A stretch of DNA of 64,000 nucleotides from Patescibacteria group bacterium (GTDB taxonomy: Bacteria; Patescibacteriota; Microgenomatia; UBA1406; GWC2-37-13), in contig BPJC01000003.1 in the NCBI GenBank assembly GCA_026004415.1, forward strand, positions 49,178 to 113,177. Direction: 5' to 3'. The position numbers and the translations under genes are program-made. Shown piece after piece: positions 8,822-57,200 of the stretch. The notes under the pieces were generated by a model. It was not told the DNA's origin. It did not search any database and saw nothing but the letters and a program-made list of their open reading frames with translations. How positions within the stretch are numbered: the first letter of the stretch is position 1; every line of letters starts with the position of its first letter.

Positions 8822-9653
8822 ATGTTTGATACGCATTGCCATCTTAACTTTAAAGCATTTGAGTCCCAGGTTGATGATATTATCAAAGAATCTAAAAACT
8901 ATGGGGTTTATTATTTTATGATACCAGGCACAGATTATGCAACAAGCAAAAGAGCGGTTGAGATATCTGAAAAGTATAAAAATGCATTTTGTTCTGTAGG
9001 TTTGCATCCGCATCATATATATGAGTTTGTTCAAAAAAACATAGATATAGATGATTATGATTTTATAGGTTTTATTAAGGTTTTAGTTGAGTCAGATTCT
9101 GTTAAGGCTATAGGTGAAGTTGGGTTTGACAGACATGTGTATACTAAGACAAAGTATCAGAATTATAAAGTTAATGAAGTTTTTTTGAGTTTACAAAAAA
9201 AGTTGTTTATTAAGCAGTATGATATGGCACTTAAATTAGACAAGAGTTTAATAATTCATTGCAGAGAGGCTGAATCTGATTTGTTGGCTGTACTTGGCGA
9301 TGTGTGGGATAGCAAGATGCAAGGTAGAGCAGTGTTTCATTGTTGTCCCTGCCAGCGGAGATTTGCTTAAGTTTGCTTTAGAGCAAAAAGTTTTTATTGG
9401 AGTTGATGGAGATGCAACCTATGATCCCAGAAAACAGGCTTTTATTAAAAAAGTTCCGTTAGACTTATTAGTTTTGGAGACAGACTCTCCTTTTTTAATG
9501 CCTGAACCTATAAGATCTGAAAGGAGATTTCCAAATACACCAGCAAATTTAAGGTATATTGCCGAGATATGCGCTTATCTAAAAGATTTAAGAGTAGATG
9601 AAATAGTAAGAATTACCACTGAAAATGCATTTAAATTATTTAGATTAAAATAA
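8822..9653 (+). pseudogene. tatD: TatD-family metal-dependent hydrolase/DNase, interrupted by a single frameshift
   Basis: ORF 8822..9370 starts MFDTHCHLNF and runs to AVFHCC. ORF 9294..9653, one frame over, continues PASGDLLKFALEQKVFIGVDGDATY...LVLETDSPFL. The switch is at ~9344-9350 (TGTCCCT). Confidence 0.75.
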
Positions 9654-9657
9654 AATT

Positions 9658-10164
9658 GCCTTTTAGTTCCTAACTTTCGATGCCGTTTTTTACTTATAGT
9701 TAGCCTTTTAGTTCCTAACTTTCGATGGATGTGGTTGCTATTCCTTGCCTTTTAGTTCCTAACTTTCGATGTATTTTTTTTCTTTTTTTGGCCTTTTAGT
9801 TCCTAACTTTCGATGGTGTGGTTGCTATTCCTTGCCTTTTAGTTCCTAACTTTCGATGTATTTTTTTTCTTTTTTTGGCCTTTTAGTTCCTAACTTTCGA
9901 TGTAAATTTGTCGTTTTTTTGCCTTTTAGTTCCTAACTTTCGATGGGCACAGGGACACTATTTGCCTTTTAGTTCCTAACTTTCGATGTCTTGCTGTCGT
10001 TTGATTGGCCTTTTAGTTCCTAACTTTCGATGAACAAGTCCAATAAAACTAGCCTTTTAGTTCCTAACTTTCGATGGGAGTTATTATTATGTTTCGCCTT
10101 TTAGTTCCTAACTTTCGATGAAAAGAAAGATTTTATCAAGCCTTTTAGTTCCTAACTTTCGATG
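9658..10164 (-). CRISPR. CRISPR array: 12 identical 25-nt repeats, 11 spacers of 18-20 nt
   Basis: Repeat on + strand is GCCTTTTAGTTCCTAACTTTCGATG, starting at 9658, 9703, 9747, 9791, 9834, 9878, 9921, 9964, 10008, 10052, 10096 and 10140. Minus-strand transcription is inferred: there is no leader room on the low side (tatD stop is 4 nt away), and a minus-strand promoter abuts the repeat at 10164. Confidence 0.97.
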
Positions 10165-10193
10165 AGTATAACAAATTTAGATTTTTGTGTCAA
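10165..10193 (-). promoter_or_regulatory. Candidate sigma70-type promoter driving the CRISPR array (minus strand)
   Basis: Minus strand reads TTGACA (10193-10188), a 17-nt spacer ending TGT, then TATACT (10170-10165), directly abutting the terminal repeat. The predicted start falls ~6-8 nt into that repeat. Confidence 0.55.
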
Positions 10194-10211
10194 GTTTTAC
10201 AAAATTTATAA

Positions 10212-10241
10212 TTGACATTTATCTATTAGAAATTCTATAAT
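10212..10241 (+). promoter_or_regulatory. Candidate sigma70-type promoter for cas1
   Basis: TTGACA (10212-10217), 18 nt, TATAAT (10236-10241), located 44 nt upstream of the cas1 GTG. Confidence 0.5.
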
Positions 10242-10284
10242 TTTAGATAGATTTTTAGTTTTCAATATTTATTTTTTTCAGTTA

Positions 10285-11316
10285 GTGAAAATATCAAAAT
10301 ATTTTATTTGGTTACCTTATTTGACCAAAATTAAGGTATATCCAAGTTCAGTTTATTTTGAGTTTAAGGGAGGAGATCTTAAAATTGAATGGTCTAGAAT
10401 TCACTCTATTATGATCTACGGTAGTTCTGTTGATCTTCCTCATGATTTTTTAGACAAATGTTCTTTTTACAAAATCCCGATAGTTTTGCATAGAAGAAAT
10501 GTTGTAAGAGCTGTTTTTATTGCTCCTTGTCTTTCTGGAGATTCTGAGGATATTTTAAGTAAACAGATTTGTTTTAGAGATAACTATAAAAAAAGAGCAT
10601 ATATTGCAAAAAGGTTGCTTTTGGCCAAATTCAAAAGTATGTCTTGGCTTGTGCCTTATCGAAAAGATTATTTATATGGTGTTTCTGATATTGATAAGAT
10701 GGTTTCTTTTGAGGCGCATCACTCTAGAAGGTATTGGAAAGAATATTTTGGTTTATTAGGCAGTAGTTCCAGCAGAAGAGATTCAGATTCAGATTATAAG
10801 AAGGTTTTAGATGCTATTTCTAAGTTTGTCTCTGGTGTTTTGTTAAGATGGGTTGTTTATCATAATTTGAGTCCTTATCATGGATTCATTCATAAGCCTA
10901 ATGACTATCCTTCTTTAGTTTATGATCTTATGGAACCATATAGAGGTTATTTTGATAGGGTAGCTTTTGGTGTCTTTAAAAAAGTTAGTGATGCTGGCAT
11001 TGATAAAAAAAGGTGCCTTGGCCTTGCGATAGAGGAGATAAAAGAGTTTTTAGATATTAAGGTTTATGTTTCTGCAACAAGGCAAGTTGTTAAGTTTAAA
11101 GAGTTGTTGCATGGTGTAGTTATTGCTTTAAGATCTTATCTGTTAGGCAATACAAGAAGGTTTGTTGTTCCTTTGCCCAGCAAGCCAAAAGGTGGAAGAC
11201 CTGTTAATGCAGGTTATAAGCTTTATGGAGGTAACGCTGGTATTACTAATTTTTGGCCTGATACTAAAGAGTTGGCCTATAATTTTGAAAAAATATTCTT
11301 TGTTTCAGATCTGTAG
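10285..11316 (+). CDS. cas1: CRISPR-associated endonuclease Cas1 (stand-alone; no cas2/cas4 partner)
   Basis: 343 aa; EAHHSRRYWKEYF and YHGFIHKPNDYPSLVYDLMEPYR match the Cas1 catalytic H / D-x-x-E-P-(F/Y)-R blocks. Adjacent to the array. GTG start. Confidence 0.9.
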   Translation: MKISKYFIWLPYLTKIKVYPSSVYFEFKGGDLKIEWSRIHSIMIYGSSVDLPHDFLDKCSFYKIPIVLHRRNVVRAVFIAPCLSGDSEDILSKQICFRDNYKKRAYIAKRLLLAKFKSMSWLVPYRKDYLYGVSDIDKMVSFEAHHSRRYWKEYFGLLGSSSSRRDSDSDYKKVLDAISKFVSGVLLRWVVYHNLSPYHGFIHKPNDYPSLVYDLMEPYRGYFDRVAFGVFKKVSDAGIDKKRCLGLAIEEIKEFLDIKVYVSATRQVVKFKELLHGVVIALRSYLLGNTRRFVVPLPSKPKGGRPVNAGYKLYGGNAGITNFWPDTKELAYNFEKIFFVSDL

Positions 11317-14300
11317 CCAACTTATATTTTTTATTGTTTTGTTTTTTAAGAATTCGATAGTTTCTTTGAATGTATCTTTTGATTCATCTTTAGTTTGATT
11401 TTGGTTTCTAAGAAGCATTGTATAACCTCTAACTGCCATAATAAAAGATGCTTGTTTGTCTGCGTCAGCTATGAAGTTGCAGTCTGAGTTTGGACAGATA
11501 AATAAAAAGCTGTTTCCTCTTTTGTTTTTTAAATCATATATTTTTTGTAGGTTATTGTTGTCTTTGTTTGTTTGGATCAGACTTGAACTGCTTTTGTTAA
11601 GAGGAGGTCTTGCAAAGTCCTTGACTATTTTTTGAAACTCTTTCAATGCATTTTTGTTATTGCCAATCTTTGGTATATTTTGGCTGTATGCTTTTAAGGT
11701 TTTGTTCCCTATTGTGATTTTTAGTAAATGTTTGTTTTCTGGGTTTGATTCTATTTTAATGTCTTTTAGGTCGTCTTTACTTATTTCATATAAACTAGTT
11801 TTACATTTGGCGCAGGTATAGCTTGAGGCATATGCGCTGACATGTTTGCCTGGGTATTTACTTCTTTTTCCCCAGATGTGTTCGTGAAGGTTATTGTTTT
11901 CTTGATATACGTCAGATTTTTTTACTGTATTATAGATTTTTGTTGTTCTGCCACTGCCAGTTTCAAAATTACTTATTGAGTATTCGTAGATAATATAGCT
12001 TGGTTTATATTTTAAAATAAGATTGTGAATTTTGTTTCTTAATGAACCAGCGGCATTTTCTCTTACTTGAGCAACTTTGTCACTTTTGTTTTTAAATAGT
12101 CCTTTTCTAGCTTGTTGTTGAATTAGTTGGAAGTTGTCTTTAATTTTGCCTATGTTGGGCTCTATTATAAAGTCTGATTCAAGAATTTCAACCTCTTGGT
12201 CGTTTACTTTAATTACTGAGTAAGCCAATCCATACTCTCCAACATCTATGCCTATTATGGGTCTGTTTAGAGATTCTGGCGCTTTTTGAATTTGTAATAA
12301 ACTTCTGTCGGGATTCTGTAATGGTTCTATATTAAAAGGTATGCTAATGTAAAGTCTGTTTTTATCTCTATTAGTTGGTGTGAATGTTGGTACTTTTTTA
12401 TTTAGATCCCAGATTATTTTGTATTCTTTCTCAAGTATCAAGCTCCACTCACCTAATTTAATTTTATGACTTTGCCAGCTTTTAGGTTTATATAGAAATC
12501 TATCTAAAAATTGGATTTGATAGTATGATGAGTTTATTTTTAATGCATTTGACAGTTGTTCTTCAGATATTTTGCTGTCTGTTATTTGGTTTTTTATGAG
12601 GTTGAGCGCTTTTGTTGATTTGTTTCCTGAATTTTTGGTAAATGTTATTACATAGTTATGCTTATTTGCAACTATGTCTTTTAGGTTTGGCTTGTCTTGG
12701 TTAAGGAGGTCGGAAATTAAAAATAGTTTGTATTTTTTGTCTATAGCTATAAATTGACAGGTGTATTTTGCTGTGTATAGTTCTTGGGTATAGATTGTTG
12801 CAAAGCCTTTTATTTCAGATAGAATAAGAGACTGGAGCAGGTAGTTGTACTCATTTTTGGTTATTTGCTGGCTTTTTATAAGTTTAAGATATGTGTTTGC
12901 TTTTGTGAATGAGTCTGGTATTTTTAGGTCGTTTTTATTGATTATTTCTATTTTTGAGAGCTTGATAAGTTTTGATATTAGATGTCTAGATAAGTCTAAA
13001 AAGTCAAGCAACTGTTCTTTGTTTTTTAATATTTCTGTTGGGTCCTGTTTTATTAAGGATAATAGTTCGTCTATTAGTTGTTTAAAGATTTTGTTTGGTT
13101 GACCGTTTATGTTTATTGTTTTTTGTGTGCCTTTGGCATATTCGCTTTTGTAAAAACAAATATGATTTAATCTATTATTTTTAATAATATCTTTAATCAC
13201 TGGTGCAGTTTTTATTAGTATTCTTGTATAACTTTCTTTGTAATACTGGCTGTTTACAGAGTTTGTTTTTAATTTATTTAATATAAAATTGAGTGTTTTT
13301 CTTAATTCTATTTCATCGTTGAGTTTTTCTATGTCAATTGAGTCAAAGATTAGTTTAAGGTGCTTTAATATAAATTCAGTTCCGGTTTCAATAGTTTCAA
13401 TGGTGTTTTTAAAGATTTTTTCATTGTTTTTTAGAATTACAGTACCGTAAAAACTTGCTGGTCTATATATATTGTTGAAGTATCTTTTTATAAGATGCTC
13501 TGATTCTTCGTTGTTGTCTGATATTTTTTGAAAGTAAAAGTTTGCTTTTTTCTTTAGTTCTGAAATTAGATTTTGAATAACTTCATTTTGTTCTGGGTGT
13601 TGAAGAGTATTCGGGTTGTTTTCTATTATTTCAAGTATTTGTTTCGCTTGTCTACTCACTTCTGTTTTTTGATCTGTTTGATCATCTTGATTGTTGTCTA
13701 TCTCTTTTATAAGTTCTTTAAGGTTGTTTTTGAATTGAGTTGTTTGTTCTATTATGTCTTTTTGTCTTTTTAACATATTACTTATCCAGCTTTTTATTTT
13801 GCCAAAGTTTATTCTATACTCAGACCAGCTATTTATTTCAGGCATAGTAGGTTTCTCTAATTTTTTTGATTGATTAGATAAGTACTCCAGCGCCTTTAGT
13901 ACTTGTTCTTGTTCTTCTTGTTGATATTTATAGATTTTGTTGATTGCTTCAAAGATTTCTGTTGTTCTGTTTTTTTGTAAACTAGTTAAAACTTTGCCGT
14001 AATAGTTTGCCATGCCATTAAAGTTGTCATCTGTTAGAACAATGCTGATTAGTACTTTTTCTATATCGTTAGTTTTTATGTTAATTTTTTCTTTTAACCA
14101 CAACTTTCTTATCTCAATTAGCTGTTCTATAGTTATGTCTTTTTCTTGGGTTATAAGTTCTGGGATTATAATAAATGTCAGTTTATCATATGGTTTGTCT
14201 GGTCTGAGATCATCTAATAATGATTTTTTAAGATCAAATTGTTGTTCCCAGAATTTTATTTGTTCTAAATTGTTCAGCTTAAGTTTTCCTTTTTCGTTAA

Positions 14301-14877
14301 AAAAGGATTCTACTATGAATTCTATAATTTCATTAGCTTGTGGTTGAATAGTTTTGTTTTTTTCATCAGTTATTTGATCTTTTTTTAGTATTTTTAAAAG
14401 CCTATTTTTGAATGATTTTTTAGTTGTTGTTGGTCTCACAGATTCAGACATTAGAATTTCATTAAATATTCCTTCATATGTAAATGTTTGTAGTAATTTA
14501 GAAGATGATTTAGTTATTATTTTTTCAATCAGAGAGTTTTCTTTTAGTATATATTGTTGTGTAAATCCGATAATGGCATTGCCTGATGATTGCCAGATAA
14601 CACCTGCTTTTAAAGAGTCTATCCAGAAGTCAATTATTGTATAAAAATTATGGTTATTGTTATAGTATTGGTAATAGTCATTTAAATTTACGCAACCTCG
14701 GATTTTTAAATCGTCTTTTACAATCGCTGTGGATATTTTTTCTATAAGTTCTTGATTGGTTAAGTTCTTTGAGTATGTTTCAAGTGGATATTTTATGCTT
14801 CTTATAACTGGTTTTTGAGATAATTGTAGTCTTTTCTGATGTAGTTTATAACCTGTGTTTATAAACTTCCTGCTCAC
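11305..14877 (-). CDS. cas12d: Type V single-effector nuclease, Cas12d/CasY-like (1190 aa)
   Basis: - RuvC-I: PIIGIDVGEYGLAY (D878, nt 12244-12246).
- RuvC-II: YIIYEYSISNFE (E965, nt 11983-11985).
- RuvC-III: ADADKQASFIMA (D1140, nt 11458-11460).
- Cys4 insertion: CAKC (1022/1025) ... CPNSDC (1128/1133).
- No HNH. The first ~870 aa have no motif I recognise.
- N-terminal GYKLHQKRLQ...SIKYPL and C-terminal RGNSFLFICP...ADADKQAS resemble CasY proteins as I remember them.
- GTG start immediately after an in-frame TAA. Confidence 0.9.
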   Translation of the reverse strand: MSRKFINTGYKLHQKRLQLSQKPVIRSIKYPLETYSKNLTNQELIEKISTAIVKDDLKIRGCVNLNDYYQYYNNNHNFYTIIDFWIDSLKAGVIWQSSGNAIIGFTQQYILKENSLIEKIITKSSSKLLQTFTYEGIFNEILMSESVRPTTTKKSFKNRLLKILKKDQITDEKNKTIQPQANEIIEFIVESFFNEKGKLKLNNLEQIKFWEQQFDLKKSLLDDLRPDKPYDKLTFIIIPELITQEKDITIEQLIEIRKLWLKEKINIKTNDIEKVLISIVLTDDNFNGMANYYGKVLTSLQKNRTTEIFEAINKIYKYQQEEQEQVLKALEYLSNQSKKLEKPTMPEINSWSEYRINFGKIKSWISNMLKRQKDIIEQTTQFKNNLKELIKEIDNNQDDQTDQKTEVSRQAKQILEIIENNPNTLQHPEQNEVIQNLISELKKKANFYFQKISDNNEESEHLIKRYFNNIYRPASFYGTVILKNNEKIFKNTIETIETGTEFILKHLKLIFDSIDIEKLNDEIELRKTLNFILNKLKTNSVNSQYYKESYTRILIKTAPVIKDIIKNNRLNHICFYKSEYAKGTQKTININGQPNKIFKQLIDELLSLIKQDPTEILKNKEQLLDFLDLSRHLISKLIKLSKIEIINKNDLKIPDSFTKANTYLKLIKSQQITKNEYNYLLQSLILSEIKGFATIYTQELYTAKYTCQFIAIDKKYKLFLISDLLNQDKPNLKDIVANKHNYVITFTKNSGNKSTKALNLIKNQITDSKISEEQLSNALKINSSYYQIQFLDRFLYKPKSWQSHKIKLGEWSLILEKEYKIIWDLNKKVPTFTPTNRDKNRLYISIPFNIEPLQNPDRSLLQIQKAPESLNRPIIGIDVGEYGLAYSVIKVNDQEVEILESDFIIEPNIGKIKDNFQLIQQQARKGLFKNKSDKVAQVRENAAGSLRNKIHNLILKYKPSYIIYEYSISNFETGSGRTTKIYNTVKKSDVYQENNNLHEHIWGKRSKYPGKHVSAYASSYTCAKCKTSLYEISKDDLKDIKIESNPENKHLLKITIGNKTLKAYSQNIPKIGNNKNALKEFQKIVKDFARPPLNKSSSSLIQTNKDNNNLQKIYDLKNKRGNSFLFICPNSDCNFIADADKQASFIMAVRGYTMLLRNQNQTKDESKDTFKETIEFLKNKTIKNISWLQI

Positions 14878-14897
14878 TTAATTAAAAAAATTTTTGT

Positions 14898-14971
14898 GAG
14901 CCTTTGCAGTAAAAGGCAACGATTTACAAAAATGTAAATCGGGAAACCGCAAAGGCTCTGAGTTAGGAACT
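14898..14971 (-). ncRNA. Candidate scoutRNA/tracr-like RNA with repeat-complementary segments
   Basis: - Perfect 10-bp long-range stem: GAGCCTTTGC (14898-14907) / GCAAAGGCTC (14949-14958).
- Inner 8-bp hairpin: GATTTACA-AAAA-TGTAAATC (14921-14940).
- AGTTAGGAACT (14961-14971) is the exact reverse complement of repeat positions 8-18.
- TAAAAGGC (14910-14917) is the reverse complement of repeat positions 1-8.
- Minus strand chosen because of the promoter at 14980-15007 and a downstream U-tract. Strand is not proven. Confidence 0.6.
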
Positions 14972-14979
14972 CAATTAAT

Positions 14980-15007
14980 TTTATATCATATTATTTTAAA
15001 TTGTCAA
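14980..15007 (-). promoter_or_regulatory. Candidate promoter for the anti-repeat RNA / cas12d transcript
   Basis: Minus strand reads TTGACA (15007-15002), a 16-nt spacer ending TGA, then TATAAA (14985-14980). The predicted start is ~14971-14974, at the first anti-repeat segment. Confidence 0.5.
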
Positions 15008-15030
15008 TATTGTATAATGTATACAGGTGT

Positions 15031-15969
15031 ATGAAAGATAAAAATTTTTTAGTTAGTGTTGTGATCCCTGTTTACAATGAAGAACAGGCTTTGCCTAAAT
15101 TGTTTCCTCGTCTTTTGCCTATATTGGAAAAATACAATTATGAGTTGATATTTGTTGATGATGGATCTAAAGATGCTTCTGTTGAGATTATCAAGGAAAA
15201 GGCAAGGTCTAATCCAAGAATAAAGTTAATCTCTTTTCAGAGAAATTTTGGACATCAGATGGCTTTAACCTGTGGCTATGATAATTGTAGAGGTGATTGT
15301 GTTATAACTTTAGATGCTGATTTGCAAGATCCTCCTGAACTTATAGATAAAATGATTGTTAAATGGCAGGAAGGTTACGATATTGTTTATGGTCAACGGT
15401 TGGATCGTCAGACTGATTCTTTTTTCAAAAGAACTACCGCAGATTATTTTTATAAGTTTATGAATTATTTATCTGATGTAAAAATCCCTGAACATGTTGC
15501 TGATTTTAGACTTTTGGATAAAAAGGTTGTTGTTTTTTTGAAAACTTTAAAAGAACGATCAAGGTTTTTGAGAGGTTTAGTCGTTTGGCCTGGTTTCAGA
15601 TCTACTGTAGTGCGTTATAAAAGAGAAAAGAGATCTGCAGGTACTACACATTATAGTTTGAGGAAAATGTTTGCTTTTGCTTTTGAAGGTATTATCTCTT
15701 TTTCTACGCGACCTTTGCAGTTGGCTACTTATTTGGGCTTTATAAGCGCTTTTCTAGGTTTTATTGGCATAGTGTATGCTGTTATTGGTAAGTTTGTTTT
15801 TTCTCATTACTGGGTTACCGGCTGGACTGCTTTGTTTGTGAGCATTATGTTTATGGGCGGTGTTCAGCTTATTGCAATAGGTATAATAGGAGAGTATGTT
15901 GGAAAGATTTATAAAGAAGTTCAGCAAAGACCTTTGTATTTAATAAAAGAAAAGGTAAATTTTGATTAA
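15031..15969 (+). CDS. GT2 polyprenyl-phosphate glycosyltransferase (GtrB/ArnC/DPM1-like)
   Basis: VSVVIPVYNEE, FVDDGSKD and LDADLQDPPE are GT2 motifs, plus two C-terminal TM helices typical of lipid-carrier-charging GT2 enzymes. ATG 15031 preferred to the track TTG 15001. An extended -10 TGTATAAT lies at 15011-15018. Confidence 0.85.
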   Translation: MKDKNFLVSVVIPVYNEEQALPKLFPRLLPILEKYNYELIFVDDGSKDASVEIIKEKARSNPRIKLISFQRNFGHQMALTCGYDNCRGDCVITLDADLQDPPELIDKMIVKWQEGYDIVYGQRLDRQTDSFFKRTTADYFYKFMNYLSDVKIPEHVADFRLLDKKVVVFLKTLKERSRFLRGLVVWPGFRSTVVRYKREKRSAGTTHYSLRKMFAFAFEGIISFSTRPLQLATYLGFISAFLGFIGIVYAVIGKFVFSHYWVTGWTALFVSIMFMGGVQLIAIGIIGEYVGKIYKEVQQRPLYLIKEKVNFD

Positions 15970-15971
15970 AT

Positions 15972-16136
15972 ATGTCTGTTTTTAGGGTTATTGCAAAGTT
16001 TAGATGGCTATTTTTGGTTGTTGGTTTAATCCTGTTTGCTTATTTTGTTTTTAAGTATATAAATCAGGATAAACAGTTTCTGTCTCCTGTGCCTATTGAG
16101 AATGATATTAAGGTTATTCAATTGAAGGGGTCTTAA
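15972..16136 (+). CDS. Possible small single-pass membrane protein (54 aa)
   Basis: ATG ORF MSVFRVIAKFRWLFLVVGLILFAYFVFKY... lies 2 nt after the GT2 stop, below the track length cut-off. Only the ORF, TM segment and tight spacing support it. Confidence 0.3.
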   Translation: MSVFRVIAKFRWLFLVVGLILFAYFVFKYINQDKQFLSPVPIENDIKVIQLKGS

Positions 16137-17866: not shown

Positions 17867-19858
17867 ATGTCAATAAAATATAATAAGAGTTTTCTTCAGT
17901 TTTTAGTATTGCCTGCTTTATTGGTTTCTATAATTTTTAGTTACTTTGTTGTTGCCAATAATGATTTGTTGTTTCTTTTACCTAAAGCAGAAGGGGATGT
18001 GACCTTTTATAAAGACTCTTCTAACCCTCCTTTCTTGTTTTTTTTCAACTCTTATGACAACAAGGAGTTTATGTGTTTTCAAAGAGAAAACAGGGAAGCA
18101 GGAGAGGTAGATAAGTCTGTTCCTTGGGATGCCTGGTTGATAAATAAAACTGAAAACTGTACTGATACATGGAATTGGTATTTTAATAGGGTTGGTACTA
18201 CTCCTAATCTGCCTGCAGATAAATCCGGTTATGTTAACTTATGTCGAACGCCACAGTATGATCAAACTGTTTGTTTGTCTAAAGTAAGGCCGCAACAGCC
18301 TACTCCTACTCCACAACCTGATACAGATTTAGAGCCTTCACCAACCTTGACTCCAACACCTGTTCCAGCTGATAATCAGGGTTCAAACTCAACTTCAGAC
18401 AATACTTCATCTAATCCAACACCAACTTCTGCGTCGGTAACAAATACTGCTCAGCTTTGTTTTTACAATACAGCAGAGATTTATATTAATTGTTTAAAAA
18501 CTAAAAATAACTGTGTTTTTTCTACTCATATTAAGTTTAACAATGACGATTCAAGTCTAAAAAATACTGGAGATATAAAACTAGAAAGAAGCAATGATGG
18601 AAAATCTTTTAAACATATTGCTGGCCCTAACAAATGGGAGAAAGATTCTTTAAAGTTTAATTATTCTCCTGAATGGACAGGAGGAGATGTTATGCTGAAT
18701 TTAGATAAAGATAATTCAGCAACAATTTATTGGAAAGGCAAATTCAATGGGTGTGTTGGTTCTGAAAATAAAGAAATTGAAGATATGTTAGAATGTGAGT
18801 TTTCTGTTAATGGTGGATTGCCATCTGTTAAGGGCTCTGGTTGTTATGTAAAAGATATCATAGTTGAGCATGAGACTCAAAAGAGTTCTGATTCTAACTC
18901 TGGTACTTCATCTAATTCCAACTCTGGTACTTCATCTAATTCCAACTCTGGTACTTCATCTAATTCCAGCTCTGGTACTGTATCTAATTCTAACTCTGGT
19001 TCTTCATCTGGCTCCAATTCTGGTACTTCATCTAATTCCAGCTCTGGTACTGCATCTAATTCCAACTCTGGTTCTTCACAAGTTGATGATTCAGGGACCT
19101 CTACGAGTAATGACAGTGGTTCAAGTCAAACTGTAAGCTGTCTTGCAAATTGTTTTTCTACAGCTACAGTTGAGACTGCAGTAAGAAGATGTGTAGTTGA
19201 TAATAATAATAATAATTATAGATGTATACCACAAGTAAATTTGTGTTCTAATGTTTCTTGTAGAGGCGAAGATGAAGGCGTTTTGGTGTCTACAAAATAC
19301 TATAAAAACGAGGATTCTTCTGAGGAGTATCTGTTATATAATTCAAGCAATTGTTCTGGTCAGCCTCAAATGTATAGAGATCAAAGAACTTTAGAGGCTA
19401 TCTGTGGAAAAACAAAGAGAAATATAAGAGTTAGCTATGAAGATTACAGACTGGATCTAAACCATGAACCTGGGTTTTCCAAAGATTTAAAATTGGTTTC
19501 AGCTTATATCTTAGTAATACAAGAAAAAAACGGAATTTATTTCCCGATCTCTGATAATATTTATTTATATAAAGATCAGCAAGACTCTAATATATTTGGT
19601 TATCATTTAAAAAATAACTTTAAAACTATTAGTATAGAGATATCAAAATTTTCTTTTTTATTAACGGATAAGTATAGGATAAATCCTGAAAACAACAAAC
19701 TAAACAGTAATAATTTTGTTATTTTAAATCTAGAATTTGATAGAAATATATCAAATGATATGCCCCATACGATATTTATATTAATAGGTCGTTTTGGTTA
19801 TAAAACAAGTTATGTTTTTTCAAATTTATCAGTTGTTGATTTACAAAATTCTAAATAG
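17867..19858 (+). CDS. Hypothetical secreted/cell-surface protein with PT-rich linker and Ser/Asn-rich tandem repeats
   Basis: N-terminal hydrophobic anchor, a PT-rich stretch (QQPTPTPQPDT...) and (SGTSSNSN)n low complexity. Many Cys. No family recognised. Confidence 0.6.
   Translation: MSIKYNKSFLQFLVLPALLVSIIFSYFVVANNDLLFLLPKAEGDVTFYKDSSNPPFLFFFNSYDNKEFMCFQRENREAGEVDKSVPWDAWLINKTENCTDTWNWYFNRVGTTPNLPADKSGYVNLCRTPQYDQTVCLSKVRPQQPTPTPQPDTDLEPSPTLTPTPVPADNQGSNSTSDNTSSNPTPTSASVTNTAQLCFYNTAEIYINCLKTKNNCVFSTHIKFNNDDSSLKNTGDIKLERSNDGKSFKHIAGPNKWEKDSLKFNYSPEWTGGDVMLNLDKDNSATIYWKGKFNGCVGSENKEIEDMLECEFSVNGGLPSVKGSGCYVKDIIVEHETQKSSDSNSGTSSNSNSGTSSNSNSGTSSNSSSGTVSNSNSGSSSGSNSGTSSNSSSGTASNSNSGSSQVDDSGTSTSNDSGSSQTVSCLANCFSTATVETAVRRCVVDNNNNNYRCIPQVNLCSNVSCRGEDEGVLVSTKYYKNEDSSEEYLLYNSSNCSGQPQMYRDQRTLEAICGKTKRNIRVSYEDYRLDLNHEPGFSKDLKLVSAYILVIQEKNGIYFPISDNIYLYKDQQDSNIFGYHLKNNFKTISIEISKFSFLLTDKYRINPENNKLNSNNFVILNLEFDRNISNDMPHTIFILIGRFGYKTSYVFSNLSVVDLQNSK
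18887..19078 (+). repeat. 24-nt (8-codon) in-frame tandem repeat, ~8 copies
   Basis: TCTGGTACTTCATCTAATTCCAAC and close variants are repeated head to tail from 18899. They encode SGTSSNSN units inside ORF 17867..19858. Confidence 0.9.
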
Positions 19859-22127: not shown

Positions 22128-22198
22128 CTGCCGGGCTAGGATTCGAACCTAGACTAAACGGTCCAGAGCCGTTTGTGCTACCTTTACACCACCCGGCA
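22128..22198 (-). tRNA. tRNA-Gln (anticodon CUG)
   Basis: Hand-folded cloverleaf. Acceptor UGCCGGG/CCCGGCA with U1:A72, anticodon stem AACGG/CCGTT, loop CTCTGGA, T-arm CTAGG-TTCGAAT-CCTAG. No encoded CCA. Confidence 0.85.
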
Positions 22199-27103: not shown

Positions 27104-27176
27104 TGAATCGCCGGGGAGTCGAACCCCGAACCTACCGGTTAAGAGCCGGTTGCTCTGCCAATTGAGCTAGCGATCC
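27104..27176 (-). tRNA. tRNA-Lys (anticodon CUU)
   Basis: Cloverleaf: GGATCGC acceptor, GCTC-AATTGGCA-GAGC D-arm, ACCGG-CTCTTAA-CCGGT anticodon arm, CGGGG-TTCGACT-CCCCG T-arm. Confidence 0.9.
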
Positions 27177-27266
27177 AATAATTACAAAGTATAGTATATC
27201 AAAATATTAGGTTTAATGAGTTGTTTTTGCTTGTTTTATTTATGTGTTTTAAGATTTGAGAGAATG

Positions 27267-27338
27267 AGCGGCGGACCGGATTCGAACCGGCGACCTTCTC
27301 CTTGGCAAGGAGACATTCTACCACTGAACTACCGCCGC
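27267..27338 (-). tRNA. tRNA-Gly (anticodon GCC)
   Basis: Cloverleaf: GCGGCGG acceptor, TCTCC-TTGCCAA-GGAGA anticodon arm, GCCGG-TTCGAAT-CCGGT T-arm. Confidence 0.9.
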
Positions 27339-27392
27339 TTAAATTAAAAAAATTTTACCACTATTTTAAAAAATTGCAAAATAAGCAAATTC

Positions 27393-28571
27393 TTATTCCT
27401 CCTTTTCTTTTCCAATGATATTTTTCATATATATTAGCAAAACCATGTAAACAAAAGGAAAATATAATATTAGGTATCTTGGATAGATTGGTATCTTTAT
27501 TAAATATAGCATATATAACCAAATCCAGATAAGAAATAAAAACATAAACCTGGTTTGTTTATTAAAAACTTTTCTTTTTAACTTTATGGCTTTATTTAAA
27601 TAAATTATTGTTAAAAGAATCATAGATATAATTGAGAATGGATAAATTAAGTTCCAGTATTCAAAGTTTATATATCCTTTGTTATCCCACCAGATTTTCC
27701 ATTTATTAAACAACAATAAAGGCAAAACATTACCTTTGGCTTCTATGTAATTTAAATGATTATACCTCCAGAAGTTAAAGATCCATTTTTGGGCTTTAAT
27801 AAATTCTGTAATAGTTGTTCCTTGAGTAAATGATGGTATGTAAGTTAATAAAAAAGCTAAAGTAAAAGACAAGCTAGATATAAGTATAAAGAATATTATT
27901 TTTGAAAGTTTAAGTTTAGATAGCAACATATGAATTAACAATGTTATAGCAACTATGACTACTATTAAATAAAACTTTACTGTTGCTAAGAATCCAAGTG
28001 ATAATCCTGTTAATATATTAAACATAATTTGTTGTTTATTTACCCATTTTATATAAAAATAGAAAGTTAGTAATAAAAACAATAGTTGGTATATATCTAA
28101 CAAAGTTGGTTCTTTTAAAAACATTTTTATAGTGCTGTCGTTGGTAAATAAGAAAAAACCGATTGAACTTAACAAAAAAGAATTTGTCACCTGTTTTAGT
28201 ATTAGATAGAATAAAATAGCTGTTAAAACTACAGATATTAATCCAGAAATATTTTCATTTTTAAATAACAAGATTGAGACACCAATAAAATATTTGCCTA
28301 GAGTCATATGTTCAGCATTGAGTAGAATAGGGTTTGTTCCTGTAAGGTATTTATACCCAGCATATGCATATAATTGGCCATCTGATATTCCTTTTTTTGA
28401 GTTGGGTATTACATATTGTGATTGATTAAACTCTTGTTCTGCTAAATCAGGATCAAACTTTTTAATATAGATTTCTTTATTATTGTATATTTGAACTACC
28501 AGGCTAATAAAACCTAATAAAATCATTAAAATGCTTATATATTTGGTTAATTGTTTGTTTTTTATATACAT
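27393..28571 (-). CDS. GT39/PMT-like membrane glycosyltransferase
   Basis: 392 aa, polytopic. The loop NAEHMTLGKYFIG resembles the HPPLGK motif of protein-O-mannosyltransferase-type GT-C enzymes. Confidence 0.55.
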   Translation of the reverse strand: MYIKNKQLTKYISILMILLGFISLVVQIYNNKEIYIKKFDPDLAEQEFNQSQYVIPNSKKGISDGQLYAYAGYKYLTGTNPILLNAEHMTLGKYFIGVSILLFKNENISGLISVVLTAILFYLILKQVTNSFLLSSIGFFLFTNDSTIKMFLKEPTLLDIYQLLFLLLTFYFYIKWVNKQQIMFNILTGLSLGFLATVKFYLIVVIVAITLLIHMLLSKLKLSKIIFFILISSLSFTLAFLLTYIPSFTQGTTITEFIKAQKWIFNFWRYNHLNYIEAKGNVLPLLLFNKWKIWWDNKGYINFEYWNLIYPFSIISMILLTIIYLNKAIKLKRKVFNKQTRFMFLFLIWIWLYMLYLIKIPIYPRYLILYFPFVYMVLLIYMKNIIGKEKEE

Positions 28572-28640
28572 TAATGTAGTTTTTATATTTTAGAACAATT
28601 TAATAGATTTAACAAATTTTTGTTAATTGTAGGTTTGGTG

Positions 28641-28723
28641 TGCCGGGGAGAGGACTTGAACCTCCACTCCCAAAGGGAACAGCCTCCTCAAGACTGCGCG
28701 TCTACCAATTCCGCCACCCCGGC
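28641..28723 (-). tRNA. tRNA-Leu (anticodon GAG)
   Basis: Class II tRNA with a long variable arm: GCCGGGG acceptor, CAGTC-TTGAGGA-GGCTG anticodon arm, TTCAAGT T-loop. Confidence 0.9.
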
Positions 28724-28780
28724 ATTAACTATTTAAAAAAAAGATTATTAATCAATATGATTAAATATACTATACTTTTG

Positions 28781-28853
28781 TGAGCCCGCAGGGACTCGAA
28801 CCCTGAACCAACGGCTTAAAAGGCCGTTGCTCTGCCAGTTGAGCTACGGGCCC
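28781..28853 (-). tRNA. tRNA-Lys (anticodon UUU)
   Basis: Cloverleaf: GGGCCCG acceptor, ACGGC-CTTTTAA-GCCGT anticodon arm, CAGGG-TTCGAGT-CCCTG T-arm. Confidence 0.9.
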
Positions 28854-35113: not shown

Positions 35114-36397
35114 TTAGCCTTTGTTTAGAGTTTCTAAAAACTCTGCATTGGTTTTTGTTTTGGCCAATTTCTCTATTAGCACTTTAAGTCTTTCTTCAGG
35201 GTCAAGCAAAGACAGCATTCTTCTAAGAGTTGCTATCTTTGTCAATTCTTCTGGTGTTTGCAAAAGTTCTTCTTTTCGTGTGCCTGATTTTTCAATATCT
35301 ATAGCTGGAAACACTCTTTTTTCAGCAAATTTTCTTTCAAGGTGAATTTCCATATTTCCAGTACCTTTAAACTCTTCATAGATTAAGTCATCCATTCTTG
35401 ATTCAGTACCAATAAGGGCAGTTCCTATAATTGTTAGACTACCTCCTTCTTCACAGTTTCTGGCTGCTCCTAAAAACTTTTTAGCAGGGTAGAGGGCGGC
35501 AGGATCTAACCCTCCTGATAATGATCTTCCAGTATTGCCTGTGGTGACATTGTAAGCTCTGGCAAGTCTAGTTATTGAGTCAAGCAGTATTATTACATCT
35601 TTACCCATCTCAACTAATCTTTTTGCTCTTTCTAAGGCAAGGTTGGCAACTCTTATTTGATATTTTGGTGGTTCATCAAAGTGTGATGCCGCAACTTCAC
35701 CTTTAATTACTCTAGATAATTCTGTAACTTCTTCAGGTCTTTCTCCTATGAGAATTGCAATAATATGAGCCGAAGGGTGATTTTCAGCAATTGCTCCTGC
35801 AATTTCTTTTAATAAGGTTGTTTTTCCTGCTTTAGGTTGTGAGACTATCAGACCTCTTTGCCCAAAACCAATTGGTGATAACAGATCAATAATTCTGGTT
35901 GAGATTATATCAGGTTTAGTTTCTAACTTGATTTTTCTGTTTGGATGAATTGATGTTAAGTTTTCAAAATACGGTCTTTGTCTGCTTTCTTCTTCGTTCA
36001 TTTCTACATTGTTTATTTTTTTAATTAAAAGAAGGCTATTAAACCGTTCACCTTCTTTTGGCGGACGAGCTAAACCTTCTATTTCATCTCCTTTTCGCAA
36101 CCAAAATCTTCTTATCTGTGAATTTGACAGGTAAACATCTTTATCTGGGTTGATGCCATAATTAGCTCTTAAAAATCCATATTTGTTGAAGGTAATATCA
36201 AGTATTCCTTTGGTTGGGTAGCTTAGTTTCAAGTCTTCCTCGAGTCTTTTTTGTTTTTCATCCGCGTCTAATCTATTGTTTTCTGTTTTGTTATTAGTTT
36301 TTGGTTCTTCTTGTTGGGGATCAATTGTTTCATCTAAAAGTGTAGAGGTTATTAACTCAACCTCATCTTGATTGTGGTCAGTGTTGTTGTTTGACAT
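35114..36397 (-). CDS. rho: Transcription termination factor Rho
   Basis: 427 aa; N-terminal RNA-binding region, Walker A PKAGKTTLLKEIA, and the RecA-type core through ...RKEELL. Confidence 0.95.
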   Translation of the reverse strand: MSNNNTDHNQDEVELITSTLLDETIDPQQEEPKTNNKTENNRLDADEKQKRLEEDLKLSYPTKGILDITFNKYGFLRANYGINPDKDVYLSNSQIRRFWLRKGDEIEGLARPPKEGERFNSLLLIKKINNVEMNEEESRQRPYFENLTSIHPNRKIKLETKPDIISTRIIDLLSPIGFGQRGLIVSQPKAGKTTLLKEIAGAIAENHPSAHIIAILIGERPEEVTELSRVIKGEVAASHFDEPPKYQIRVANLALERAKRLVEMGKDVIILLDSITRLARAYNVTTGNTGRSLSGGLDPAALYPAKKFLGAARNCEEGGSLTIIGTALIGTESRMDDLIYEEFKGTGNMEIHLERKFAEKRVFPAIDIEKSGTRKEELLQTPEELTKIATLRRMLSLLDPEERLKVLIEKLAKTKTNAEFLETLNKG

Positions 36398-52574: not shown

Positions 52575-54209
52575 TTATTTGGGTAATTTTCTAGATCCCA
52601 GTAATAGCTTACTGGTTTTAATTTTTTTTATTAAATCTATTGAGTTTTCAATAGGAGTTATATTTTTTTTCCATCTTTTATCAGAAGGTAAATAACTTCC
52701 AGTTGTGTAAACATTTCCTGTGAAATAACCAGCATAGCAGGTGTAACCTGAAGGGCAGGTGCTATTTACAGATCCTACAATTCCGGCGGCATAGTTCGAT
52801 AAATCATTTTGGTAGCCTATGCCACCGGCAGTAAGCCAGTTATTTCCTGCAGAGTTTAATAAGGTTCCATGAATTGCAACTCTGTAATTAGAACTAGTAC
52901 TTGTTCCTAATTCTTTAGCTATTGCTTCTATGGTGTGGTAACTTCCTGATGAAACAGATGGATCATAAGCATAAATCGATGTAAGTGCGTTATTTGTAGT
53001 ATAAGGAAGGTTTGTTGTTGATGATTTAGCTACATGTAAAATACTATCTGGGTTTGTAAGACCTATTCCAACATTTCCTCCACTTGGGTTGATTATAAAT
53101 TTGGTAGGAGAGTTAGAACTATTATACGCTTGTAGGCCGGTTACACTTGAAACATTTCCAAACAATATATAATCTCCGCTTCCAATAGTTGATCTTATTG
53201 AACCTTGTACATCAAGTTTATACTGCGGATTCGTCGTCCCGATGCCGACATTGCCAGTGTCAACAGTAATTGAACCATCTCTAAAAGATATTTGAGGATC
53301 TGTTGTGCCAGTGTTGTAAGTCCAGGTGAAGACAGAGCCGGAACCCCAAGTTACAGAGGCAAGTTCAGTTGGATCAAAGGCAACAGTTGGAGACCATCCT
53401 TCACCTGCAGTTCCTGTAACATCAATATAATTTCCCGCAGTGATTCCAGCAACATAATTGCCGGTAGTTTCTGATCCTAAGGCAATACAATTTGTACATG
53501 TTATTCCTCCATCTGCATTTATATCTCCTGAGAAATAAGCCGTACCTGCAACATATAGTTTATATGATCCCGGACTCGTCGTTCCGATGCCGACATTGCC
53601 AGTGTCAACAGTAATTGAACCATCTCTAAAAGATATTTGAGGATCTGTTGTGCCAGTGTTGTAAGTCCAGGTGAAGACAGAGCCGGAACCCCAAGTTACA
53701 GAGGCAAGTTCAGTTGGATCAAAGGCAACAGTTGGAGACCATCCTTCACCTGCAGTTCCTGTAACATCAATATAATTTCCCGCAGTGATTCCAGCAACAT
53801 AATTGCCGGTAGTTTCTGATCCTAAGGCAATACAATTTGTACATGTTATTCCTCCATCTGCATTTATATCTCCTGAGAAATAAGCCGTACCTGCAACATA
53901 TAGTTTATATGATCCCGGACTCGTCGTCCCGATGCCGACATTGCCAGTGTCAACAGTAATTGAACCATCTCTAAAAGATATTTGAGGATCTGTTGTGCCA
54001 GTGTTGTAAGTCCAGGTGAAGACAGAGCCGGAACCCCAAGTTACAGAGGCAAGTTCAGTTGGATCAAAGGCAACAGTTGGAGACCATCCTTCACCTGCAG
54101 TTCCTGTAACATCAATATAATTTCCCGCAGTGATTCCAGCAACATAATTGCCGGTAGTTTCTGATCCTAAGGCAATACAATTTGTACATGTTATTCCTCC
54201 ATCTGCATG
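52575..54209 (-). pseudogene. Middle fragment of the giant surface-fibre gene (contains the 3 x 115-aa repeats; no start codon of its own until TTG 53165)
   Basis: The minus-strand frame is open from 54209 to 52575. It encodes three identical 115-aa units (...GNVGIGTTSPGSYKLYVAGTAYFSGDINADGGITCTNC...), then ...GNVGIGTTNPQYKLDVQG..., and ends PSDKRWKKNITPIENSIDLIKK, the start of the S74 domain. The track only reports 52575..53165. Confidence 0.7.
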
Positions 54210-54256
54210 TTATATCTCCTGAGAATATAAGCCGTACCTGCAACATATAGTTTATA
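53222..54256 (-). repeat. Three head-to-tail 345-bp (115-codon) near-perfect tandem repeats inside the giant gene
   Basis: Positions p and p+345 are identical over ~53240-53911 except one mismatch (53238 C vs 53583 T). This is reflected by three identical antisense ORFs at 53292, 53637 and 53982. The top copy carries two extra bases (G 54209 and T 54226). Confidence 0.95.
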
Positions 54257-57200
54257 TGATCCCGGACTCGTCGTCCCGATGCCGACGTTGCCTGTCGCAA
54301 AATAACTATTTCCTCCTGAACCATCTAACCAAATATTGGTAATAATTGAAGGATAGGAACCAAGCGTGACCGTCATTGGTCCTATTCCTATCGCTTTGTT
54401 TACTCTTAAATTGGCGTCATCCCCTGAAGTTTGTAAAAACATTGTTGGTACGGTATTTCCAGTTGCGGTATTGGTATGAATCCAGGCCGGGCCATAGCCC
54501 GTTCCATCATCAGTATAATGAAGGTAAGTTTCAAATGGATAAGTTCCAGATTTAATAATTCCACCATAACCGGTCATACCTATTCCACCAATCCAGATGT
54601 TACCTGCTACTGATAATTTTTCACTAGGATTCGTCGTTCCGATGCCGACGTTGCCCGCTACTGTTAAACCTGCCCAGGGTGACTGTGTTCCGTAGTTGTA
54701 TCCTACACTTAGCGCTCCTGTATATACTTGTGCACCAGAGCTGCCGTAACCAAATCCTATTGCTGTTCCAGAATCATATTCTCTAAGCCAAATATTATTA
54801 ATCCTTATATCTCCTCCTTGAACATCCAACTTCGCCCCCGGATTCGTCGTCCCGATGCCGACGTTGCCTGTTGTTTGTGCAAGTATTGCTCCGCCAGAGA
54901 TTCTTAGAGAGTATCCGTTCATACCAGTACCTGCAGGATCTAATCCAAAGTTTTGGTCAGATTTGTCTAAGAATTTTTCTGCTATTACTGAATTGTTTAC
55001 AGTCAATGACTCTGTGGTTAAATTGGTTGAATATAAAGATCCATTAACATATAGTTTATAAGAACCCGGATTCGTCGTCCCGATGCCGACATTGCCCGAA
55101 GCTGTTATTCTCATGACTTCATTACCTGTATCCGCTCTATTACCATTCCAAGTAACACCAGATCTAAATGTTAGTGGTACATTTCCTCCGACTCCTTCCC
55201 AGCTAATAATAGCTCTTCTTTCTCCTGTAGTATCAGAAACGTCCAAACCTATTGTAGCATCGCCAGTATTACCAACAATTGCAGAAACGACTTGTCCATC
55301 ACCTTGAACCTGTAATTTTTGAGCAGGCCCCGTAGTCCCGATGCCGACGTTTTCTGATTTTATTACCATCTCCGGATCAGACACTCCATCCCCCTGGTTA
55401 AAAACCAGAGGATTTCCTGCACCAAGCCCTTGATCATCCATCCCTATTGTCCAACGGACTGAACTTCCATCTCTAAATTTTATTACTGGATCAGACAAAC
55501 CCGCACCATTCATAAGTATATTCCCGTTGTATACTGTAAGCTTTTCTCCTGGACCCGCCGTCCCAATTCCCACATAACCTGTTGCCCCTTCAATAAACAT
55601 TCGGGTACTAAAACTAAATGTATTTCCACTAGTTAATCCTGTATTTGCCCTAAATTGTATATTTCCATTTGCAAGGAATACTGCAGAGGCTGCATCACTC
55701 CTTGCTGTAAATGACCCCATGTCATGGGTTGCTCCTGCAGTAATGTGCCCCCAGTCAGCATCTGAAGTATATCCGCCTCCTCCTAAAAACAAACCACCTG
55801 AGGTTGTGCCTCCCATGGTGCTTGTTTGCAGGTATAACCCTCCGCCTTGACCATGTTGGACTAGTGCAGCCTCGTTAAGTCCTGTTTTAATATGAAGTCT
55901 CGCCCCTGGACTCGTTGTTCCGATGCCTACATTGCCGGAGGTGTCTATTCTGACAGCTTCAGTCCAATTATCAGTCATAAATCTTAATTGCCCTCCAGTT
56001 TCATCAGAACCGAGACTTAACAGATTTGAATTAGTGTCATAAACTACGTTGGCTACCTGGGTTCCATTTTCTGCCATACTAAATGCAGCTTGATATCCAG
56101 TTGTAGTGTCTGCTTGGATATAAGAGTGAGCTGTTGAATCATATTTAATGCCTATAGTTGATGATCCGGCTATATGCAATTTGTACACTGGACTTGTCGT
56201 TCCGATGCCGACATTGCCATTCATAATTTCAATATCTCCGTCTGTTTGAATTTTTAATCCTTCTACCCAAGTAATATTTGTGTCAGCTGTGCCTGATACT
56301 GCATATCTAAGGCTTATGTCTCCTGTAGATGGCATCGCAATATTTTGTGCTGTTCCAGTATTAGTGTATTTCCAGTTTGATCCATCCCAATAAGCGTTTC
56401 TAGTAAAGAAAGATCCGTTTGCCGCTTGAAGCAAATGAGTTAAGTTCTCAATTTGTAATTTAGATTTTGGATTAGTTGTTCCTATACCAACATTGCCACT
56501 GGCATCTATGACAAATGGAGTTGTGTCTGAGTCTCCTGTTTCATCGTTAACTCTAAAAGAAAATCCTGATCCTAAATTGGTAATCATTAAAGGAACTGCG
56601 CTAGAGTTACTGTTTGTTGCTAGTTTTAAAAGATTTCCTGTTCCTCCTGATGTTGTGGGTGAGTGGTTTATTTCTAAAATTGAGCCAGAAAGTCCTGATG
56701 AGGTAGAGGAGAGGTAAAGAGATCTGCCTGATGTTAGAGAGTTAGCGTTTATAGTAAAAAAATTCTGAGTGCTTGCAGATGTGTTAAAGGTCGTGGTATA
56801 GGTGGAGTGATTGAGTGTTAGGTTGTCTGTTGGGTCAAGCAAGTCGTCCCAGTATAGCGAGTTTGCAGTTATGTTAGTAGTCCAAGATAAAATTCCTGTT
56901 GCATCTGTTTTAAGGTATCCGTTAGCATTTATTGAAGTAGGTAGGGTGTAGGTAATATCCGCTGTTTGGGTTCCAGTTACAAAAGTTGTTGAGTATGCAT
57001 TGTCTCCGGCGCTGATTAAATCGATTTTGCCTGCAGTGTTGTTTGTGCCTGTTGAGGCATCTAATCCTACAGTTATGCCAGAAGAACCTGATATGTGAAG
57101 ATGCGTTGCTGGAGCTGTAGTGCCGATGCCAACATTTCCTGATGTGTCTATTATTACTTGAGGTGTAGTAGCCGCATTTGTTCCAAGACCTAAATACCTT

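Follow-up and report, generated by a model that had tools for sequence, protein, structure and literature searches.

Cas12d, a compact nuclease found in candidate phyla radiation (CPR) bacteria, has drawn interest for genome editing; we know of no solved structure of its guide-RNA architecture. For Cas12d (CasY, type V-D), an untranslated RNA of short complementarity (scoutRNA) was reportedly described by Harrington et al. in 2020 in Mol Cell. Here, a stretch of 64,000 nt from contig BPJC01000003.1 of a Patescibacteria group bacterium (this whole stretch is called the window) was analyzed for an element read on the minus strand in the gap between cas12d and a divergent GT2 gene. ScoutRNAs as a kind have been known since 2020, and the window RNA is a further member. 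That the element is a homolog of the scoutRNA is very likely; the whole explanation, according to which positions 14973-14898 on the minus strand form the scoutRNA gene of a type V-D (Cas12d/CasY) locus with a two-part anti-repeat scaffold, is considered probable.

For KbCas12d (CasY.1), scoutRNA1-5 are given in bioRxiv 10.1101/2023.12.12.571249, whose supplement names the RNAs active with this nuclease in vitro. [quoted passage not shown] A scoutRNA is known to be required together with the crRNA for DNA cleavage by CasY15 and KbCas12d. For scoutRNAs, a complementarity of '3-5 nt' to the repeat is quoted (PMC9522604). The structure of Cas12c2 from cryo-electron microscopy (cryo-EM; Kurihara et al. 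[quoted passage not shown] In this structure, the strands follow one another as 5' segment, stem 1, stem 2, dock and stem 1, which form an X-junction (PMC9522604).

An earlier note on the window had proposed a promoter-driven, scoutRNA- or tracr-like RNA directly upstream of cas12d. The sequence was re-read and all elements named in that note were present on the minus strand where it had placed them; the proposal is supported by the architecture of KbCas12d scoutRNA1 and by conservation, with covariation, in 35 loci. The parts of the element and its surroundings are as follows:

15007-15002, minus strand: -35 box TTGACA, read from the sequence
14985-14980 (TATAAA) or 14983-14978 (TAAAAT), minus strand: -10 box; the promoter scan favours TAAAAT (11/12 match)
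14978..15007, minus strand: predicted sigma-70-like promoter of the scoutRNA/cas12d transcript, from the scan and the conserved position in homologs
14973-14959, minus strand: 5' hairpin segment UGAGUUCCUAACUCA, read from the sequence
14961..14971, minus strand: 5'-terminal anti-repeat 11-mer AGUUCCUAACU (as DNA AGTTCCTAACT), complementary to crRNA repeat nt 8-18
14946..14958, minus strand: 5' arm of the closing (outer) stem, GAGCCUUUGCGG(U), from the minimum free energy (MFE) fold and covariation
14942..14946, minus strand: conserved UUUCC linker, shared with the KbCas12d scoutRNA, from homolog comparison
14920..14941, minus strand: inner hairpin CGAUUUACA-UUUU-UGUAAAUCG, from the MFE fold and covariation
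upstream of 14917, minus strand: UU between inner hairpin and dock, read from the sequence
14910..14917, minus strand: dock 8-mer GCCUUUUA (as DNA GCCTTTTA), of which GCCUU would pair with the spacer-proximal AAGGC of the repeat
14898..14909, minus strand: 3' arm of the closing stem, CUGCAAAGGCUC, from the MFE fold and covariation
14878..14897, minus strand: AU-rich 20-nt link to the cas12d start codon, ACAAAAAUUUUUUUAAUUAA, not conserved in relatives
14890-14884, minus strand: U7 run, read from the sequence
14877, minus strand: cas12d start codon GTG, read from the sequence

The 98-nt RNA has an MFE of -35.1 kcal/mol versus -12.4 ± 2.8 kcal/mol for shuffled sequences (z = -8.15; 0/200 shuffles as good), and the structured RNA spans 14973-14898. 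Two nested stems had been described in the earlier note and were recovered, but their lengths of 10 bp and 8 bp had to be corrected: the closing stem comprises 12-13 bp (14958-14946 with 14910-14898) and the inner hairpin 9 bp. Similarly, the 123-nt gap given for cas12d and the GT2 gene holds only if GT2 starts with TTG at 15001; with the start ATG at 15031 the gap is ~153 nt.

By inspection, the order of parts is that of KbCas12d scoutRNA1, i.e., closing stem, UUUCC, hairpin, unpaired GCCUU and closing stem. The repeats are identical at 17/25 positions and share the AAAGGC end, and the spacers are short in both systems. Differences from KbCas12d concern the position of the scout, which adjoins the array there, whereas in the window and 34 related loci it lies directly upstream of cas12d with its own promoter; the closing stem, which has 6 bp there versus 12-13 bp in the window; and the 5'-terminal 11-nt anti-repeat, which is an extra part of the window RNA. 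As in Cas12c2, crRNA positions -18 to -8 and -4 to -1 find partners in the RNA, and the permuted strand order agrees too, as judged for the window by complementarity. The 5' end of the RNA faces the upstream part of the repeat and precedes the 5' arm of stem 1, which for the window RNA is indicated by complementarity and co-variation, and the spacer-proximal end has its partner in a dock that adjoins the 3' arm of stem 1, in the window again by complementarity. The permuted, pseudoknot-like pairing proposed in the earlier note is thus the order seen in the Cas12c2 cryo-EM structure (PMC9522604). In contrast to Cas12c2, where two tracr segments (4 nt of the 5' end plus 7 nt of the 3' region) share positions -18 to -8, a single 11-nt 5' segment covers them in the window; the 3'-region pairing at -18 to -12 (R:AR-3) as well as stem 3 and stem 4 are absent from the window RNA, the effector belongs to another subtype and no sequence similarity was shown.

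Like canonical tracrRNAs (type II Cas9; V-B, V-E, V-F), the window RNA is trans-encoded in the cas locus, has a 5' anti-repeat followed by hairpins and would form a guide scaffold with the crRNA. Unlike in these, the anti-repeat appears split (11 + 5-8 nt) and permuted instead of forming one long duplex, no RNase III substrate is evident in the window RNA, and this RNA is apparently joined to the effector mRNA as part of its leader. Taken literally, a complementarity limited to 3-5 nt does not describe the window RNA, for which it amounts to 11 + 5-8 nt (16-19 nt in total). This limit is treated here as part of the original description and not as a defining feature; for Cas12c2 it has already been overturned by the structure (PMC9522604). 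The RNA shows every defining feature of a Cas12d scoutRNA that can be judged from the sequence. The co-varying 11-nt anti-repeat, the positional match to Cas12c2 and the fusion to the cas12d leader exceed the Cas12d descriptions available for this comparison, to which the original 2020 paper did not belong; hence, novelty is not claimed for them with confidence. The two-part anti-repeat is regarded as a modestly novel refinement.

For the comparative analysis, Cas12d loci (numbered with the prefix L) were gathered from GTDB genomes (11 loci), metagenomes (32 loci) and exact-protein look-ups (7 loci). No Cas12d relatives were found in the viral contigs searched. Homologous elements were found by a pattern search and a covariance model, R1, was then built from 12 sequences of the simple type. 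R1 detected one copy directly upstream of cas12d in 35 loci, 23 of them outside the model-building set, with E-values of 1e-21 to 3e-3 and a distance of 7-49 nt to the cas12d start. Scores were 40-94 bits on the cas12d strand and ≤ 26 bits on the opposite strand. Covariation across homologous loci had been suggested as a check in the earlier note and turned out to be strong: in the 12-sequence alignment, 97% of cells are paired and 17/25 pairs show changes on both sides. None of 500 shuffles scored as high as observed (0/500) and slid controls collapsed. All cells of the closing stem are paired (100%), and 9 of its 13 pairs carry compensatory changes. The inner hairpin shows compensatory changes in 7/7 modelled pairs; its sequence drifts freely and only the structure is kept. 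The closing stem also carries an invariant G.U pair, which fixes the strand, since the opposite strand would have a C.A mismatch. Because of the R1 matches, the covariation and this G.U pair, the element is, as far as sequence comparison can tell, a real, conserved and structured RNA of the cas12d strand and homologous to the known scoutRNA. A transcript of the opposite strand was rejected based on its weaker fold (z = -3.5), the reverse R1 scores of ≤ 26 bits and the change of G.U to C.A. No Rfam family was found for the element, neither in a permissive scan of 9000-16000 nor in a scan of the whole window at gathering thresholds; the scoutRNA is apparently absent from Rfam 15.

In another scout subtype, which is longer (~100 nt), two additional hairpins follow the dock and precede the closing stem's 3' arm. 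This subtype occurs in L002, L003, L004, L006, L009, L012, L013, L014, L022, L023, L035, L043, L046, L047 and L048. Its second extra hairpin usually has a NUUCC/GGAAN stem, resembling GGAAC of the repeat and GUUCC of the 5' segment.

As had been noted before, repeat nt 8-18 (crRNA -18 to -8, counted from the spacer) are matched by a perfectly complementary 11-mer, and it co-varies with the repeat of its own locus. Within the 64 kb, the exact 11-mer is found in the 12 array repeats and at this site only, with 0.03 matches expected per window. The longest contiguous complementarity to the repeat is 11 nt, or 14 nt with one mismatch, and no complementarity to the repeat was found in the 3' tail of the window RNA. 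Both array and scout were present in 21 loci, which provide 13 distinct scout/repeat combinations. The 11-mer pairs with nt 8-18 of its own repeat at 10-11 of 11 positions in 21/21 loci; over the 13 combinations, 97.2% of the helix is paired and three pairs change on both sides. Across loci, the 5' segment is almost invariant (GUUCCUAA core) and, where variable, follows the repeat of its own locus. The following pairs of repeat nt 8-18 and scout were found, among others:

Repeat AGUUAGGAACU, scout AGUUCCUAACU: window and 8 others, 11 Watson-Crick pairs
Repeat GGUUAGGAACC, scout GGUUCCUAACC: L002, both ends switched
Repeat GGUUAGUAACC, scout GGUUACUAACC: L021, L044 and L045, compensatory loop change
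Repeat AGUUAGGGACU, scout AGUUCCUAACU: L018, G.U
Repeat GGUUAGGAACC, scout GGUUUCUAACC: L023 and L035, G.U
Repeat AGUUAGGAACC, scout GGUUCCUAACC: 5 loci, terminal A.C

Among the distinct combinations, pair 1:18 is G:C eight times and A:U five times, with zero mismatches. When placed on a rough tree of Cas12d, at least three independent, coordinated switches of this pair between A:U and G:C separate sister loci (L012/L002; L048/L046; window clade versus L017 and L044/L045). Loop position 5:14 changes from C:G to A:U in L021/L044/L045 and to U.G in L023. Since the stem arms are palindromic, only the loop separates a complement of the repeat from a copy of the repeat; the loops are complementary (CCU versus AGG) and co-vary. 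In the free RNA, the 11-mer is predicted to sit inside a weak hairpin, UGAGUU-CCU-AACUCA (14973-14959). According to RNAcofold, this 5' hairpin of -3.5 kcal/mol opens and the 11-bp repeat duplex reaches -14.4 to -16.2 kcal/mol; the dimer has -46.2 kcal/mol compared to -36.7 kcal/mol for the summed monomers. A copy of the 11-mer with one mismatch, AGTTTCTAACT, was seen at 35918-35928 on the plus strand; about two such chance matches are expected in the window.

The dock 8-mer is the exact complement of repeat nt 18-25. Its complementarity to the spacer-proximal repeat end had been recognized in the earlier note, but conservation does not extend to the full 8-mer: the five pairs GCCUU:AAGGC are invariant in 13/13 scout/repeat combinations, while a sixth pair is present in 10/13 and a seventh in 6/13. 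The further 2-3 nt pair in the window locus, not in every locus. The dock duplex contributes only -5 to -8 kcal/mol in RNAcofold. The 8-mer was rejected as independent statistical evidence, since its 7 non-array matches in the whole window are not significantly more than the 5.2 expected; the significance formerly attached to it (~0.03) was not borne out. Its meaning derives from the conserved position in the structure and not from its frequency. The closing stem contains GCCUUU in its 5' arm (14951-14956), paired with AAAGGC in its 3' arm (14900-14905, minus strand), which is an internal copy of the pairing between dock and repeat end. Alternative pairings arising from this copy, either of the dock with the 3' arm or of the 5' arm with the repeat, are conceivable. 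GCCUUU in the closing stem is common to L016/L018/L019, and most other loci have GCCCUU.

On the whole, we lean towards a functional 11-nt pairing with the repeat, to judge from the comparison of scouts and repeats, although several points weigh against the two-part scaffold. The minimal 44-nt KbCas12d scoutRNA without flanks is the most active form in vitro, so a second anti-repeat is not universally required. In four combinations of repeat and scout, the terminal pair is an A.C mismatch. Internal one-sided changes, which bear on the question of RNA versus DNA level, number two, both of them G.U. At DNA level, the 11-mer equals the repeat duplex inverted, and from co-variation alone, pairing of RNAs and a DNA-binding site common to both places cannot be told apart. 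Furthermore, the two-helix complex is pseudoknotted and beyond RNAcofold, so that energies apply to each helix only, and the 5' and 3' ends of the transcript are only predicted.

The alternative that survives best accepts the scoutRNA core as real and takes the 5' hairpin as intramolecular only, serving in 5'-end protection or protein binding, with its relation to the repeat going back to the ancestry of an inverted unit. It is consistent with the 5' hairpin predicted for the free RNA, with a stem running 1-2 bp past the repeat-complementary part (UG...CA; these extra pairs are fairly conserved) and with the minimal KbCas12d scoutRNA, which needs no flanks. Yet the hairpin of -3.5 kcal/mol is weak compared to the -14 to -16 kcal/mol of the repeat duplex, and its loop is complementary, not identical, to the repeat loop and co-varies with the repeat. 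The 10-mer is kept where the intramolecular hairpin shifts its register (L011, L015, L001), and ancestry alone leaves the coordinated switches of scout and repeat in sister loci unexplained. Thus, a purely intramolecular role is judged unlikely.

The near-consensus promoter TTGACA-16-TATAAA of the earlier note is present; the scan also allows TTGACA-18-TAAAAT (11/12). Of the 31 distinct upstream regions compared among homologs, about two thirds have a TTGAnn -35 box at the same position, together with a -10 box whose end is ~7 nt away from the 11-mer on its upstream side. Due to this conserved promoter position, the 11-mer is predicted at the very 5' end of the RNA. Downstream of the scout no conserved terminator was found, and the link between stem and start codon varies from 7 to 49 nt in relatives (7 nt in L016/L018/L019, 9 nt in L046 and 10 nt in L050) without sequence conservation. 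No Shine-Dalgarno-like motif was found in the window's link at 14878..14897. The U7 run reported earlier at 14890-14884 exists, but was rejected as an intrinsic terminator: it begins 7 nt past the stem, is not conserved, being absent from the closest relative L005, and is further ruled out as such by the 7-nt distance between stem and start codon in L016, L018 and L019. A separate cas12d promoter between scout and start codon was rejected as well because there is no room for it, and cas12d should therefore be transcribed through the scout. Co-transcription of scout and cas12d is the more plausible state of affairs; the scout would then be the 5' leader of the effector mRNA and either be cut out or be used in place.

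The short distances are also what a mainly cis-acting leader would predict. Here, Cas12d (with or without crRNA) would bind the 5' untranslated region of its own mRNA and control translation or stability, and no RNA acting in trans would be released. A gap between stem and start codon of only 7-20 nt in many loci, which leaves no room for a second promoter and shows no Shine-Dalgarno-like motif, and a U-run not conserved as terminator agree with such a leader. However, the homologous KbCas12d RNA works in trans in vitro, the scout of group-B loci (described below) follows the array and is not fused to a promoter-proximal leader, and cis and trans roles can coexist. An exclusively cis-acting element is therefore regarded as improbable.

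Even less probable is that a regulator or Cas protein binds the inverted repeat TGAGTT-CCT-AACTCA at +1, either as a DNA operator or as a site that the CRISPR repeats also contain. The 6+3+6 palindrome lies at the predicted transcription start, and identity at DNA level would likewise produce the observed 'co-variation'. But the palindrome is broken in L001, L011, L015 and L022, all of which keep the 10-mer, both internal one-sided differences are G.U-compatible, and no regulator gene is conserved in the locus. Moreover, pair 1:18 is perfectly conserved while pair 11:8 is not, which fits the end of a helix better than a symmetric operator. Taken together, the two G.U changes, the unequal conservation at either end of the helix and the disrupted palindromes favour RNA pairing, although the numbers are small. 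Chance complementarity in an AT-rich intergenic hairpin, for which one could cite that the 8-mer alone is not enriched, is opposed by the 0.03 exact 11-mer matches expected per 64 kb and effectively refuted by the comparative data, in which the element is conserved with covariation in 35 loci.

The following mechanism is proposed for the scoutRNA with its two-part anti-repeat scaffold. Transcription would start from the conserved sigma-70-like promoter at the 11-mer or 1-2 nt before it, and the RNA would form the 5' part of the cas12d transcript, from which it may be freed by processing or to which it may stay attached. Covariation shows a core fold of the 12-13-bp closing stem, the UUUCC linker and the inner hairpin, in which the dock GCCUU(UUA) is predicted to be unpaired. 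The dock would pair with the last 5-8 nt of the repeat (crRNA -1 to -5, up to -8 in the window locus). The 5'-terminal AGUUCCUAACU would leave its weak hairpin and pair with repeat nt 8-18 (crRNA -18 to -8), so that the 3' 18 nt of the repeat would be shared out between 11-mer and dock, in a permuted order resembling a pseudoknot. An 11-bp helix would be placed beside a closing stem of equal length. A linker of 1-5 nt would connect one end of this helix to the closing stem (12-14 bp), and the dock would connect the opposite end, a geometry which we infer to be consistent with two side-by-side helices. By homology, the scaffold would be analogous to the X-junction of Cas12c2; Cas12d would bind the two-RNA scaffold and use the 17-20-nt spacer to cut DNA.

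The locus agrees with type V-D, in that the non-coding element occurs with cas12d, cas1 and an array of 25-26-nt repeats and 17-20-nt spacers. Its main features are:

11305..14877, minus strand: cas12d (CasY), 1190 amino acids; NCBIfam NF033951 Cas12d, 1098 bits with a cut-off of 250
10285..11316, plus strand: cas1, convergent with cas12d
9656..10165, minus strand: CRISPR array of 12 repeats of 25 nt with spacers of 17-20 nt, predicted pairing partner of the scoutRNA

The Cas12d protein of the window is identical to a protein of the Patescibacteria metagenome-assembled genome KatS3mg090; with the Cas12c model, the effector scores 57 bits only. cas1 (plus strand) and cas12d (minus strand) overlap by 12 nt (11305-11316) and the same cas12d/cas1 arrangement was found in L044-L050. 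No cas2 or cas4 was seen adjoining cas1/cas12d in the window. The array repeat is CATCGAAAGTTAGGAACTAAAAGGC (also written CAUCGAAAGUUAGGAACUAAAAGGC), present in 12 copies and transcribed from the same strand as cas12d, and the promoter scan gave a promoter-like site at 10193-10165 directly before the first repeat. Within the array, a two-spacer block is duplicated at ~9720-9900, where the spacers CAAAAAAAGAAAAAAAAUA and AAGGAAUAGCAACCACA are present twice each, and several spacers are A-rich and of low complexity. Elsewhere in the window, a 345-bp tandem repeat (53226-54292; 3.1 copies, 99% identity) and a 24-nt tandem repeat (18887-19078; 8 copies, 85% identity), the latter within the open reading frame 17867-19858, were observed. 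Five tRNA genes, four of them clustered, lie on the minus strand at 22128-22198 and 27104-28853.

Group-B (CasY.1-like) loci (L028, L029, L031, L033, L034, L036) have the order cas1, array, truncated last repeat, scout and cas12d, all on one strand. The related element between array and cas12d is without the 5' hairpin. Following the closing stem, the 3' tail is complementary to the mid-repeat in L028 (11 nt, p ~0.008) and L033 (8 nt, p ~0.03). The corresponding match was not significant by the shuffle test in L031, L034, L036 and the published KbCas12d/CasY.1 scoutRNA (the test set did not include L029). A general 3'-tail anti-repeat in group-B loci was rejected, since the shuffle tests were significant for L028 and L033 only. 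Directly after the last repeat of L031, an inverted copy of the 3' half of the repeat (GGGGATAAAGGC ... GCCTTTATCCCC) is present at 2150-2225, which would form a 12-bp hairpin sequestering the final repeat.

Only tentatively, and with less confidence than in the readings above on which it builds, a more general picture is suggested for the largest Cas12d clade found (35 loci). The scoutRNA of this clade might be a tracrRNA-like partner with a two-part anti-repeat (11-mer plus 5-8-nt dock, 16-19 nt), engaging all of the repeat's 3' 18 nt in a permuted, pseudoknot-like junction and produced as the cas12d mRNA leader. Its release would leave a near-leaderless effector mRNA, and binding by the effector could feed back on translation. 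Should the 11-nt anti-repeat prove functional, the 11-mer ought to be part of single-guide RNAs designed for this hot-spring clade, and minimal designs derived from KbCas12d may underperform. If true, the conclusion drawn for Cas12c2, that pairing between scoutRNA and repeat is extensive, would extend to type V-D. Related systems would then cover crRNA positions -18 to -8 with one tracr segment, with two, or with segments in other places, an example of scaffold rearrangement. Finally, an RNA fused to the leader of the effector mRNA suggests a simple coupling of the amounts of helper RNA and protein.

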